Part shown: piece by piece, positions 46,408 through 49,451 of the stretch | Layout: every line of letters starts with the position of its first letter | Position numbering within the stretch: position 1 is the first letter of the stretch | IMG/VR virus record: IMGVR_UViG_2541047913_000007 | Direction: 5' to 3' (one strand) | Length of the DNA stretch: 64,000 nucleotides | Source: a virus | Taxonomy: Duplodnaviria > Heunggongvirae > Uroviricota > Caudoviricetes | Notes under the pieces: generated by a model | Databases searched by the model: none | What the model was told of the DNA's origin: nothing | Seen by the model: the letters and a program-made list of their open reading frames with translations, nothing else | Position numbers and translations under genes: made by a program

Positions 46408-47079
46408 TCAGAATTCAAATTGTCTTGCCCGCAGGCTTTTCAGCATTGGCATGGCCCGCTGGATAACGGAACTTGACATGTCGAGACGTGTTACCTCCCT
46501 TAGTAGCGCGTCTCTGTTCTTCGTCACCATGTAGATAGTCTCAAACGCAATGTCATACAGCTTGTTCGTGTATGAGGAGTTCAGCTCTTTCATTATGGGG
46601 TACAGCTGCTTGCTAAGGTCCTGGGCTTTTTCCATCCAGAGTTGCATGTAGCAAAGGAGGATGATTTCCTCGGCTGTGAATTGTGGCTGAATCTGCGGCT
46701 GCTGTTCGGTTGGTGCTGTTTTTCCCTGGCTGAAATAGCAGTCTTCCAGTTTTTCGAACACCTCCCACGCCCGATCGGTTTCGAGCATTTTTGCATGACG
46801 GGCAGCGCCGCGTTCAGTCCAGAGGATGAGGGAACGAACGTTACGGGCAATTTTCACAGAGTAGTTAAAAGCTACTCTGTGCTTGAACTCACGTAAAGTT
46901 TCACCTTCAAGTTTGAAGAAGTGTTTTTCCTCAATGAAACGACCTTTGTTTTCGTGGTGATTCTGGCGAATACGAATAGCTTCTGTGCCGTAAAGGTGCG
47001 CCAAAAGTTCAGTAGTGATAACGGGGATCTGCTTGTAAGTAATCGTGGAGAGTGTTTCAACAGAAACTTGAGTTGTCAT
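46408..47079 (-). CDS. ORF6N/KilA-N-type antirepressor-like protein (Roi-like) sharing its C-terminal domain with the ant-like gene at 3058-3687
   Basis: N-terminal ..YGTEAIRIRQNHHENKGRFIEEKHFFKLEGETLREFK; C-terminal ~100 aa near-identical to ORF 3058-3687. Confidence 0.65.
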   Translation of the reverse strand: MTTQVSVETLSTITYKQIPVITTELLAHLYGTEAIRIRQNHHENKGRFIEEKHFFKLEGETLREFKHRVAFNYSVKIARNVRSLILWTERGAARHAKMLETDRAWEVFEKLEDCYFSQGKTAPTEQQPQIQPQFTAEEIILLCYMQLWMEKAQDLSKQLYPIMKELNSSYTNKLYDIAFETIYMVTKNRDALLREVTRLDMSSSVIQRAMPMLKSLRARQFEF

Positions 47080-47242
47080 AGTGACGCCTCCGGTTGATGA
47101 GTTTTTCATTCACCACCGTCAGGTTCCTAATCATCGGGTGGCGAGACGTACAGGGTTAGGAACTACCGGATCAACCAACCGGCCAGCCTTTCGGCTGCCC
47201 CATACGCCCCACCATAATTCAGATGTGCGTGTGCATACGACA

Positions 47243-47266
47243 ATAAAAAACACGCTCGCGGCGTGT
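47243..47266 (-). terminator. tR2-like intrinsic terminator between replication/cargo region and nin region
   Basis: Minus-strand hairpin ACACGCCGCGAGCGTGT followed by TTTTTTATT. Confidence 0.55.
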
Positions 47267-47366
47267 GTCTGTCGCGGTTGAATATCCGGGGTTCCTAATC
47301 CCGACGCCAGATTTTGCTGGCGTGCGGTGAATATAATCCCGGATACCTATTTTTGTCAAACAACCG

Positions 47367-47394
47367 TTGCGCATTACACAACAGTCGCTATAAT
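47367..47394 (+). promoter_or_regulatory. Putative sigma70 promoter of higBA (-35 TTGCGC, 16-bp spacer, -10 TATAAT)
   Basis: Direct reading, about 30 bp upstream of higB start. Confidence 0.45.
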
Positions 47395-47422
47395 GATTCG
47401 CGTAACGCAACAGGAAACAAGC

Positions 47423-47701
47423 ATGATAAAAAGCTGGAAACACAAAGGACTTCAACGTTTCTTTGAAACAGGAAATGCATCAGGCATAAATCCCAATCAC
47501 GTTAAACGCCTGAGAACGCGCCTTCAGGTAATAGATCAAGCTGAAATCATTGATGATATTAACCTTGCCGGGTACAGGCTGCACCAGTTGCAGGGGGACA
47601 GATCCGATACATGGTCTGTCACCGTCTCCGGTAACTGGAGAATCACATTCGAGTTTCGGAACGGCGATGCTTATATTCTTAACTACGAGGATTACCACTA
47701 A
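47423..47701 (+). CDS. higB: HigB-type toxin (RelE/ParE superfamily)
   Basis: MIKSWKHKGLQRFFETG...GNWRITFEFRNGDAYILNYEDYH strongly resembles plasmid Rts1-type HigB as recalled; toxin-first order with overlapping antitoxin gene. Confidence 0.85.
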   Translation: MIKSWKHKGLQRFFETGNASGINPNHVKRLRTRLQVIDQAEIIDDINLAGYRLHQLQGDRSDTWSVTVSGNWRITFEFRNGDAYILNYEDYH

Positions 47702-48006
47702 TGGCGATGTTTAACCCCCCTCATCCCGGAGAAATTATTGCTGATATTCTGGAAGATCAGAATATTGGAATCAGGGAACTGGCAAGAGCGCTTGATGTCG
47801 CGCCTTCCACTGTTCAGCGACTGGTTTCAGGTAATGCGACAATATCTCCTGAAATGGCTGTTCGTCTCGCTGCTGTCCTGGGTGGAACTCCGTCTTCATG
47901 GATTCGTCTCCAGACGGCATGGAGCCTCGAAAAAGCGGAAAGAGAAGTTGACGTATCTCATCTCTCAACAAAATACCGCCCGGCAGAAATTTCGCCTCAT
48001 GCTTAA
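47701..48006 (+). CDS. higA: HigA antitoxin (XRE-type HTH)
   Basis: HTH IRELARALDVAPSTVQRLVSG; 1-bp overlap with higB. Confidence 0.85.
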   Translation: MAMFNPPHPGEIIADILEDQNIGIRELARALDVAPSTVQRLVSGNATISPEMAVRLAAVLGGTPSSWIRLQTAWSLEKAEREVDVSHLSTKYRPAEISPHA

Positions 48007-48297
48007 CCACCGCGCCGTCATTCTGGCGGCGCTTTACCCCAGAGAAATATCAATCACCGGATTACCACATCCCACTCCGGCTCCTGCCATCTCAAATCCG
48101 GTGAATCATTTCTCTCAGGAATAACCATTACGTCCTTTTCCCTTCGCTCCCTTTCTATCGCCATCACAGCCAATGCTGCAACCATGATGTATTTTTGTTC
48201 GTCGGTTCCTGTTTCATAACGACGCATGAGGGTAAACTCGGGGCGATCAGTAACCTCAATGATTTCGTTAATTTCTTTAATTTCGCGAGGAATATCC

Positions 48298-48972
48298 ATG
48301 GGTTTAGTCTCCTTTGATATCACATGCCCGCACTGTTTAAAAGAGCGAGCTGTTATTGAGGCATTTGCCGAAAAACAAATTGAAAAAACACCTTTTTTTA
48401 ACGTCGCTTTTGTATGCAGAAGTTGTCATCGAGGAGGTGTTGCTATTGTTGAAATCCCATCAGACCACTATCACGGTCCCATGGCGGAAAGCCAGAAAAA
48501 AGACCTCGATATTCTGATTTCAGGAAATAGCCAGTACCGTTTCCGCAAGATCTATCCTGTGGTCAAAAAAATTACCGCACCAGAATATACGCCCCCGGTT
48601 GCAGACCGTACTTTTGTTGAGGCAAAAGAGGATTTACAGAGGAGGCGGTACGACACAGTGGTTATTCTTTGTCGCAGAGTCCTCGATATCTCCACGAAAA
48701 AACTGCTCGGCGATGAAGCAGGAAAAGAATCGCTGTCGCAACGTATTCAGATGATTTACAAAAAAGGCCTGATCACTGAACAGATGAAGGAATGGGCTCA
48801 TATTGTACGAATTGATGCCAATAAAGCAGTTCATACAGATGAAGTTTTCACACCAATTGAGGCAAGCCAGATCCTGAGTTTTACCGAAATGTTTTTAGTC
48901 TACGCCTTCACTCTGCCTGCAATGGTGGAAGCCAGACGTGAACAAAAAAGATCAGATTCAGCCTCTATATGA
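48298..48972 (+). CDS. Zinc-ribbon plus DUF4145-like domain protein (defence-associated domain family)
   Basis: Start at MGLVSFDITCPHC with AGGAA RBS; CPHC..(16)..CRSCH zinc ribbon; C-terminal region with R..AN.A.H pattern (IVRIDANKAVH) recalled as DUF4145-like. Confidence 0.5.
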   Translation: MGLVSFDITCPHCLKERAVIEAFAEKQIEKTPFFNVAFVCRSCHRGGVAIVEIPSDHYHGPMAESQKKDLDILISGNSQYRFRKIYPVVKKITAPEYTPPVADRTFVEAKEDLQRRRYDTVVILCRRVLDISTKKLLGDEAGKESLSQRIQMIYKKGLITEQMKEWAHIVRIDANKAVHTDEVFTPIEASQILSFTEMFLVYAFTLPAMVEARREQKRSDSASI

Positions 48973-49004
48973 ATCACTTTTCTGAACACGTAAGCCCCCG
49001 TCAT

Positions 49005-49436
49005 TCACGACGGGGAGAACATCAATCCCTCTGCACTCCCTCGCCAGAATGCCAGCACACGCTGCATCGTTTCGCTGTTACGGCACTCGCGACAAATTGT
49101 GTTGTAGCGTCTGTCGTAGCGCCGTATTTCCCCATCTGGTAATGCCCGGATAAGGTCTGGATCAACGACAACCGGTTTCTTCGACTTTGCCCTTGAGAGT
49201 TTTTTGCGGGCATTTTGCCAGTCCTTACGAGCCTGTTCAGACGGGAATACTCCGTAACCGGAATTGTAAACATCACCACTGGCGGCCAGCTCCATGCATA
49301 AACGACCGACAGACGCATGACTGACACCAATTTCATCCGATAACTGCCGAATCGTGCCTCGTCCGTTAAGGCGTACGAATTCCACGATCAGCCCCTTAAT
49401 TTTTTCCCGCTCTTCTGGTGTAAATGCTCTTGTCAT
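49005..49436 (-). CDS. HTH domain protein of early region
   Basis: GTIRQLSDEIGVSHASVGRLCMELAASGDVY helix-turn-helix. Confidence 0.45.
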   Translation of the reverse strand: MTRAFTPEEREKIKGLIVEFVRLNGRGTIRQLSDEIGVSHASVGRLCMELAASGDVYNSGYGVFPSEQARKDWQNARKKLSRAKSKKPVVVDPDLIRALPDGEIRRYDRRYNTICRECRNSETMQRVLAFWRGSAEGLMFSPS

Positions 49437-49451
49437 AAGCACCTCCGGAGA

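Follow-up and report, generated by a model that had tools for sequence, protein, structure and literature searches.

A prophage cassette encoding a probable RAZR-type anti-phage RNase and a small divergent partner

The window analysed here is the whole stretch of 64,000 nucleotides (nt) of a Caudoviricetes virus (IMG/VR record IMGVR_UViG_2541047913_000007), and the surrounding element is a lambdoid, Stx-phage-like prophage. On the plus strand, at 48298..48972, lies a gene for a protein of 224 aa that joins a zinc ribbon, a linker and a DUF4145/HEPN domain. A divergent gene for a protein of 81 aa adjoins it upstream on the minus strand (48054..48299). The larger protein resembles RAZR, the ring-activated zinc-finger RNase of E. 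coli, and we propose that it is probably a RAZR-type anti-phage RNase of the prophage, with the two-gene cassette as its functional unit.

A zinc-ribbon HEPN gene and its small divergent neighbour

The RAZR-like gene was defined from its open reading frame (ORF), a Pfam match, an AlphaFold2 model and profile matches. The ORF begins with ATG at 48298 and ends with the stop codon at 48970-48972. A GAGGA Shine-Dalgarno sequence lies 7 nt 5' of the ATG, a Met-Gly start is common to 30 of 30 aligned homologues, and the RefSeq coding sequence of 675 nt (WP_032144013.1, 'DUF4145 domain-containing protein') is identical; their agreement supports the start at 48298. The ratio of nonsynonymous to synonymous substitution (dN/dS) against near relatives is 0.16-0.18, and the gene is therefore a selected coding gene rather than a chance ORF.

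The zinc-ribbon domain (aa 1-55; 48298..48462, plus strand) was recognized from conservation, the structural model and weak profile matches to RPB9/TFIIS/RPA12 ribbons, including 1qyp. Its Cys4 motif consists of the halves C10-P-H-C13 and C40-R-S-C43, and the ribbon is presumed to be the sensor or specificity domain. The linker (aa 56-98; 48463..48591, plus strand) holds Pro-87 and Pro-95, invariant in an alignment of 31 sequences, with Pro-99 just after it. The HEPN (DUF4145) RNase domain (aa 99-212; 48592..48933, plus strand) carries the candidate catalytic residues Arg-171 (codon 48808-48810), Asn-175 and His-179 (codon 48832-48834). Pfam placed DUF4145 (PF13643) at aa 118-197 with an E value of 3.9e-9 and 36.9 bits, above the curated cut-off of 23.1 bits. 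The four Cys residues, Arg-171, Asn-175 and His-179 are invariant in 31 homologues, and invariant or at least 90% conserved in 45 representatives of 50%-identity clusters. Both domain assignments of the initial annotation, a ribbon of the form CPHC...CRSC and a C-terminal DUF4145-like region, were thus confirmed.

AlphaFold2, run on an alignment, gave a confident model (pLDDT 89.4, pTM 0.77) in which aa 4-52 form a beta-ribbon with strands at 4-6, 20-27, 33-40 and 46-52. A short helix and a strand come next, and aa 100-222 fold into a helical bundle. DUF4145 is a member of the HEPN superfamily (Pfam clan CL0291), and fusion to a zinc ribbon is among its described architectures (Anantharaman et al. 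2013, PMC3710099). An exhaustive profile search over 50%-identity clusters returned 3385 cluster representatives at E ≤ 1e-3, 1421 at E ≤ 1e-10 and 212 at E ≤ 1e-30, most of them full-length (205-230 aa).

The small gene lies between higA and the RAZR-like gene and is co-oriented with the early operon read from pR. Its product, with three predicted helices and a disordered tail, matches PHROG 8371 (E 1e-55); the searches found no family or fold match for it. The start codons of the two genes overlap by 2 nt (CATG, 48297-48300), and the Shine-Dalgarno sequence of each lies within the first codons of the other. The small gene is under purifying selection, with dN/dS values of 0.04-0.39 across ten pairs.

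A hidden Markov model of the small protein was run over 68 distinct full-length loci from genomes and IMG/VR. In 43 of them the partner lies directly 5' of the DUF4145 gene in divergent orientation, and the ATG overlap of 2 nt usually recurs. The reverse search, starting from the small protein, gave a matching result: each of the 36 viral-contig loci has a complete DUF4145 gene next to the small gene and divergent from it. The partner ranges from E. coli to Alcaligenes and includes deep neighbour-joining branches, namely Alcaligenes, Zoogloeaceae, Photorhabdus, Gilliamella and a Citrobacter prophage that is of a very different type and has DNA polymerase A. The initial annotation had described the zinc-ribbon gene as a lone single-gene module; the small divergent gene is instead a conserved neighbour.

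In the window the cassette spans about 48009..48993, as delimited by phage homology. Matches of a 1.7-kb query (window 47300-49000) to phages PhiR5_2, 75/02 Stx, POCJ13 and PhiR12_3 start at query positions 703-710 (window ~48002-48009), and the PhiR12_3 match ends at 1694, which is window position 48993. In other pairs of loci homology is confined to the small gene and the DUF4145 gene, which sit on unrelated phage backbones. These limits indicate that the mobile unit is the small gene together with the DUF4145 gene, moving as a cassette between phage backbones.

Variation within the cassette is unevenly distributed. Mean pairwise identity in the family is 0.67 for the HEPN domain, 0.43 for the zinc-finger domain (ZFD) and 0.28 for the linker. 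Pairwise distances of the partner follow those of HEPN (Spearman coefficient 0.79) far more closely than those of the ZFD (0.49) or the linker (0.44). Many pairs have small proteins at most 3% different and HEPN domains 4-15% different, yet ZFDs that differ by 42-64% and linkers by 67-74%. Sliding-window nucleotide identity between loci L056 and L052, and between L092 and L082, is 0.9-0.98 over the small gene, 0.35-0.6 over the ZFD and linker, and mostly 0.8-0.95 over the HEPN part. Outside the two genes it falls immediately to a background of 0.35-0.5 on both sides; for L056/L052 high identity is back ~100 nt past the 3' end of the cassette. Between swapped cassettes the synonymous sites of the ZFD are saturated and dS is undefined. 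The alignments indicate a conserved frame in which the N-terminal sensor part has been swapped or has diversified.

Kinship with RAZR and comparison with other systems

A functional selection in E. coli yielded PD-T7-4 (Vassallo et al. 2022, PMC9519451), which was renamed RAZR (Zhang et al., Nature 2026, PMC13017515); its source is E. coli UMB1727 and its structure is PDB 9y9c. RAZR consists of an N-terminal Cys4 zinc ribbon, likened by its authors to 1QYP, and a C-terminal DUF4145 domain that is a HEPN, with linker residues 66-79 packing on the HEPN helices (PMC13017515). Its defence needs Arg-146 and His-154 and proceeds by abortive infection through non-specific cleavage of single-stranded RNA, with no toxicity when the protein is overproduced alone (PMC13017515). 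Activation occurs as a 24-mer assembled around phage rings, either Erf-like recombinase or portal proteins; the ZFD, the most variable part, sets specificity, and swapping it swaps the defence range (PMC13017515).

For comparison we reassembled the sequence of the E. coli RAZR from database fragments. BLASTP aligned the window protein with it at 24% identity over 141 aa (E 3e-5). Comparison of a 31-homologue family alignment with the RAZR family by hhalign gave a probability of 91% (E 1e-6), which rose to 97.1% (E 6.3e-11, 110 columns covering linker and HEPN) for a broader family alignment. The broader profile, searched against the PDB, had RAZR itself as its top match (9y9c, E 5e-6), followed by RPB9/TFIIS/RPA12 zinc ribbons that included 1qyp, the comparator chosen by the RAZR authors. 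The PADLOC model for PD-T7-4 (PDLC04109) matched 18 of 31 family members, with a best E value of 2.8e-7.

The two proteins are alike in size (~210-225 aa) and in the order of their parts, a Cys4 RPB9/TFIIS-type ribbon, a Pro linker and a C-terminal DUF4145 HEPN. The spacing R-x3-N-x3-H is identical, with Arg-146, Asn-150 and His-154 of RAZR corresponding to Arg-171, Asn-175 and His-179 of the window protein, and Arg-146 and His-154 are invariant among 20 aligned RAZR-family members. Further invariant residues in common (RAZR/window) are Pro-66/Pro-87, Pro-79/Pro-99, Glu-88-Ala-89/Glu-108-Ala-109 and Arg-105/Arg-126. Alignments to RAZR start in the linker, with Pro-87 and Pro-99 on Pro-66 and Pro-79, and the linker is the most variable region within the window protein's own family. 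In both proteins the variable part is the N-terminal sensor. The variability seen here is the pattern expected of a specificity domain in an arms race and would parallel the ZFD swaps of RAZR.

There are differences as well. The window family resides in temperate phages, antisense to lytic operons and mostly with the small divergent partner, whereas RAZR is a single-gene system and the RAZR homologue that we examined lies beside an integrase without such a partner. Judged by homology, the window protein is a genuine but distant RAZR homologue that has the RAZR architecture and falls outside the core family of PD-T7-4. The guess that the gene serves defence or abortive infection thereby gained support from a defence-associated relative with the same architecture and catalytic motif; both that relative and the DUF4145 domain were found by the searches.

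Most database entries for close RAZR homologues are only 146-170 aa long and start inside or after the zinc ribbon. Either their start codons have been systematically miscalled or these proteins truly lack the ZFD; the short entries could distort family models such as PD-T7-4.

DS-38 ('HEP2', WP_001313577.1) also combines a zinc finger with a HEPN domain, and its defence function in E. coli has been validated by experiment; according to its authors it aligns with PD-T7-4 in the HEPN part only (DefensePredictor, PMC13092281; bioRxiv 10.1101/2025.01.08.631726). Identity with DS-38 was rejected, as that gene measures 1101 nt (~366 aa) and peptides of the window protein are absent from its sequence tables. 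The HepT toxins of HepT-MNT systems (PDB 5yep, 7ae2/7ae6/7ae8) have the canonical Rx4-6H motif and no zinc ribbon, and the window protein is unlike them in both respects; the MNT antitoxin, which is co-transcribed with its toxin and AMPylates it, is not present at the window locus. Other DUF4145 architectures comprise fusions to a restriction endonuclease, a superfamily II helicase, AbiJ-NTD1, a transmembrane segment or a zinc ribbon, all of them computational assignments that cover many unrelated architectures, and DUF4145 is linked to restriction-modification and abortive-infection (Abi) systems (PMC3710099). The window protein is a short stand-alone form of zinc ribbon and HEPN.

The domain family, its architecture, the defence role of RAZR (2026) and the DUF4145 annotation were already known. 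The new elements are the grouping of this prophage family with RAZR, a divergent partner that is conserved, the mobility of the cassette and the swapped sensor module. The result is a large uncharacterized sister family of the RAZR architecture placed inside temperate phages, with a swapped sensor domain and a conserved partner gene, the latter lacking in RAZR.

Proposed function of the cassette

We propose that the RAZR-like protein would be made in the lysogen as a 'moron', its orientation matching that of cI. It would most likely stay inert until its zinc ribbon recognizes a protein of a superinfecting phage. Candidate triggers, by analogy with RAZR, are large rings such as portals or Erf-like recombinases. 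Recognition would bring the HEPN domains into their active arrangement, and the ensuing indiscriminate RNA cleavage, in which Arg-171 and His-179 are the predicted catalytic residues, would abort the infection.

A portal and Bet are among the proteins of the resident prophage type. To express the small gene, polymerase from pR must read antisense through the whole RNase gene. Because the small gene stands in the lytic orientation, pR reads through the RNase gene, and portal and Bet are made, the role that we favour for the small gene is that of a safety switch when the prophage itself grows lytically. On induction its product would come from the pR lytic operon and would spare the induced prophage self-abortion by its own portal and Bet/Erf rings. 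Either its product would restrain the RNase, or transcription through the small gene would silence the RNase gene head-on. We offer this role tentatively, as a possibility drawn by analogy. The observation that fits it best is that the partner co-varies with the HEPN domain and not with the hypervariable zinc ribbon that lies between them.

Phage lambda offers an analogy. RexAB is an abortive-infection function of the lambda prophage, expressed in the lysogen and oriented against pR, and ren, a small gene read from pR and placed between the genes for replication and the nin genes, has been reported to allow escape from exclusion by the phage's own RexAB. The cassette adjoins a DUF977 'Ren-like' gene at the same position, a likeness that may be no closer than analogy, as neither cassette protein is related in sequence or in fold to RexA, RexB or Ren. 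If the proposal is true, the safety device would explain how a prophage can carry a ring-sensing suicide nuclease without killing itself on induction. The partner would then represent a natural inhibitor, the first of its kind, and a general way for prophages that carry Abi systems to achieve 'self-immunity', analogous to Ren against RexAB.

Conservation of the small ORF could instead be a by-product, the ORF either embedding the promoter or ribosome-binding site of the RNase gene or being an ordinary early gene that marks an insertion site. The placement of each Shine-Dalgarno sequence in the first codons of the other gene would agree with this, as would the small gene that stands alone in phiSTEC1589-Stx1c and some Salmonella prophages. 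We nevertheless consider a by-product rather unlikely. The dN/dS values speak for selection on the small protein sequence itself, the pair moves together among lambdoid, Citrobacter DNA-polA, Alcaligenes and Zoogloeaceae backbones, and the small gene stays near-identical while the intervening DNA of ZFD and linker is replaced.

The two genes could also form an addiction pair resembling a toxin-antitoxin (TA) system, in which a constitutive toxin RNase and an 81-aa antitoxin stabilize the prophage. Divergent genes with overlapping start codons are not co-transcribed in the manner of a type II TA system, and a whole clade as well as sporadic members keep an intact RNase gene without the partner. 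Moreover, the homologue RAZR is non-toxic when overproduced alone, and no antitoxin or MNT match, in family or in fold, was found for the partner. An addiction pair is thus improbable.

A further proposal, that the protein is a regulatory or replication accessory aiding the phage itself, for example in host shut-off or lytic RNA processing, takes its support from current labels. PHROG 1305, which matches the window protein, is labelled 'DNA binding protein', as are the entries in phage records NC_029120 and NC_025434; the gene also lies beside replication genes, and RPB9/TFIIS-type zinc ribbons contact nucleic acids. Against this, in the backbones inspected the gene runs antisense to the lytic operons and is thus opposed by lytic transcription. 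Its HEPN catalytic residues do not vary, the closest characterized relative is a defence RNase, and presence in only 37 of 5426 complete E. coli genomes, with a position that varies between phages, marks the gene as accessory and not core. We regard an accessory role of this kind as very unlikely, and 'DNA binding protein' and 'DUF4145 domain-containing protein' are the labels under which the RAZR-like gene currently goes.

Several observations nonetheless weigh against a RAZR-type RNase that works as a two-gene unit. The PADLOC model for PD-T7-4 matches the window protein weakly, with an E value of 0.0022 and 15.5 bits, below the safe threshold; defence finders built on that model accordingly score the gene marginally. 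A single-sequence phmmer search of the PDB with the window protein gave no match; RAZR is reached with family profiles only. The layout CPHC...C-x2-C is common to the ribbons of both families, which align only marginally; the trigger and the ring-assembly mechanism are for that reason not confidently transferable from RAZR. The neighbour-joining tree contains a monophyletic clade of 210-211 aa proteins without the partner. Since RAZR works alone, this clade exists and the small gene also occurs alone, the partner is not obligatory. A consensus scan found no consensus sigma-70 promoter upstream of the RAZR-like gene; hand inspection gave poor -10/-35 candidates only, and we do not claim a promoter. 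No experiments on this subfamily were found in the literature searched. The architecture and catalytic residues common with RAZR, the mobility of the cassette, its hypervariable sensor and its antisense placement still make a RAZR-type anti-phage RNase the probable reading.

Members of the partner-less clade (L024, L008, L017, L084-L105) lie between terS and the lysis genes of other prophages, antisense to both, so that placement against lytic operons recurs at a second genomic site. The partner has also been lost sporadically elsewhere, and one decayed remnant was seen. In phiSTEC1589-Stx1c the small partner is kept and a 166-aa gene (L023 2186-2686) takes the place of the RAZR-like gene; it is read from the other strand, in the direction of the early operon, and has no Pfam or PADLOC match. 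Symbiopectobacterium sp. RP contains five copies (L018-L022) in which the small gene is followed by only the first 19-27 codons of a RAZR-like gene. These copies suggest that the RNase gene was repeatedly truncated while prophages of this insect symbiont degraded, or that one already truncated copy spread.

Prophage setting and the neighbouring HigBA pair

The RAZR-like gene is antisense to the pR early operon, the genes of which all lie on the minus strand: cro (54079-54279), a cII-like gene between cro and O that is interrupted by an insertion sequence (IS), the O-like gene (50995-52077), a DnaC-like (P-like) gene (50248-50988), a DUF1627 gene (49452-50222) and the DUF977/'Ren-like' gene (49005-49442). 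Past the DUF977 gene the operon continues with the ORF6N/antirepressor gene (46408-47109, minus strand) and then ninB onwards. The plus strand carries cI (54380-55093) and N (56943-57326). This arrangement agrees with the antisense position between replication and nin genes given in the initial annotation. Wherever flanking genes were inspected in other loci, the RAZR-like gene sits among phage genes, mostly antisense to those flanks where they are shown, and its position differs between phages.

Upstream of the small gene the plus strand carries higB (47423-47701), which encodes a HigB-like toxin (E 4e-22), and higA (47701-48006), which encodes an HTH_3 helix-turn-helix (HTH) domain. A plus-strand island of higB, higA and the zinc-ribbon gene had been described earlier. 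The strand of all three genes was confirmed, and their contiguity was not, as the minus-strand 81-aa gene intervenes. A GC-rich hairpin at 48012..48032, between the stop codons of higA and the small gene, lies at the left edge of the cassette; it is terminator-like on the plus strand (tail UUUA; folding energy -16.5 kcal/mol, z -3.6). A second hairpin (48996..49015) lies between the convergent 3' ends of the RAZR-like and DUF977 (Ren-like) genes, with predicted energies of -14.5 kcal/mol on the plus strand and -16.5 on the minus strand, z about -2 and a U tract on neither strand. Rfam found no RNA family within the cassette.

The suggestion that the gene had been inserted together with HigBA did not hold. 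Phage homology breaks directly past the higA stop codon, and the segment with HigA or HigBA matches another set of Stx phages than the cassette does. In 75/02 Stx and E. coli G1/2 a Gp49/RelE-like gene and an HTH gene lie upstream and the DUF4145 gene is 100% identical; in PhiR12_3 another toxin-like ORF and an HTH gene lie upstream and the cassette occupies a different genome region; phage PA2 has HigA and lacks the cassette. Of the 5426 complete E. coli genomes, 92 match part of the 1.7-kb query and ~55 of these are without the DUF4145 gene, so that their match must be to higBA or the small-gene part. HigBA adjoins the DUF4145 gene in 14 of the 37 carriers. A homologue of any of five tested TA pairs occurs within 2 kb in only 5 of 43 distinct cassette loci, a count that would miss other TA families. 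Linkage to HigBA was rejected on the homology break and on identical copies that lie beside other TA pairs or none.

A joint three-gene defence island, in which HigB, HigA and the DUF4145 protein were acquired and work together, is hardly credible: the three genes are adjacent on one strand, several E. coli/Shigella relatives have a TA pair on the same side and a Photorhabdus locus has ParE and an HTH gene downstream, but the TA pair changes between loci while the DUF4145 gene stays 97-100% identical, HigA or HigBA occurs without that gene in PA2 and the ~55 E. coli genomes, tested TA homologues are near few cassette loci only, and a minus-strand gene and a terminator-like hairpin stand in between.

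The slot between the small gene and the antirepressor gene holds a different plus-strand TA pair in each related phage. It contains HigBA in the window (47423-48006), Gp49 and HTH in L001 (4430-4991), an unknown protein and HTH in L002 (4290-4973) and, in phiSTEC1589-Stx1c (L023 3297-3945), TumE with a winged HTH protein of the Pfam HVO_A0114 family. The slot behaves as an exchangeable TA hotspot, and HigBA is an unrelated neighbour of the cassette.

Upstream of the ORF6N/antirepressor gene, Rfam revealed an immunity RNA module of the P1/P7 type on the minus strand (47134-47359). It comprises C4 antisense RNA (47134-47219, 67.5 bits), isrK (47245-47323, 68.9 bits) and a c4 a1/b1 target (47283-47336) that scores 44.5 bits, slightly below the gathering score. 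A near-consensus promoter, TTGACA-18-TATATT (47359-47330), lies ahead of the module and diverges from higB.

The element that lies between cro and O and breaks the cII-like gene at its 5' end is an IS3-family insertion sequence of 1312 bp (52597-53908) with 26-nt terminal inverted repeats, orfA at 52652-52978 and orfB at 52975-53865; we take it to be IS629-like. The closely related prophage of strain JNEC-KY204 is without it, and the window prophage may be impaired in its pR operon owing to the insertion.

Directly 3' of cI, which is presumably lambda-like, two overlapping plus-strand genes encode a DUF6978-like protein (55140-55682) and a DUF1828 protein (55670-56446), a position that we take to be that of rexA-rexB in lambda. 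The pair weakly matches the PADLOC candidate system PDC-M24A/B (E 4e-4 and 5e-7), and it is possible that it represents a second lysogen-expressed defence pair of the prophage.

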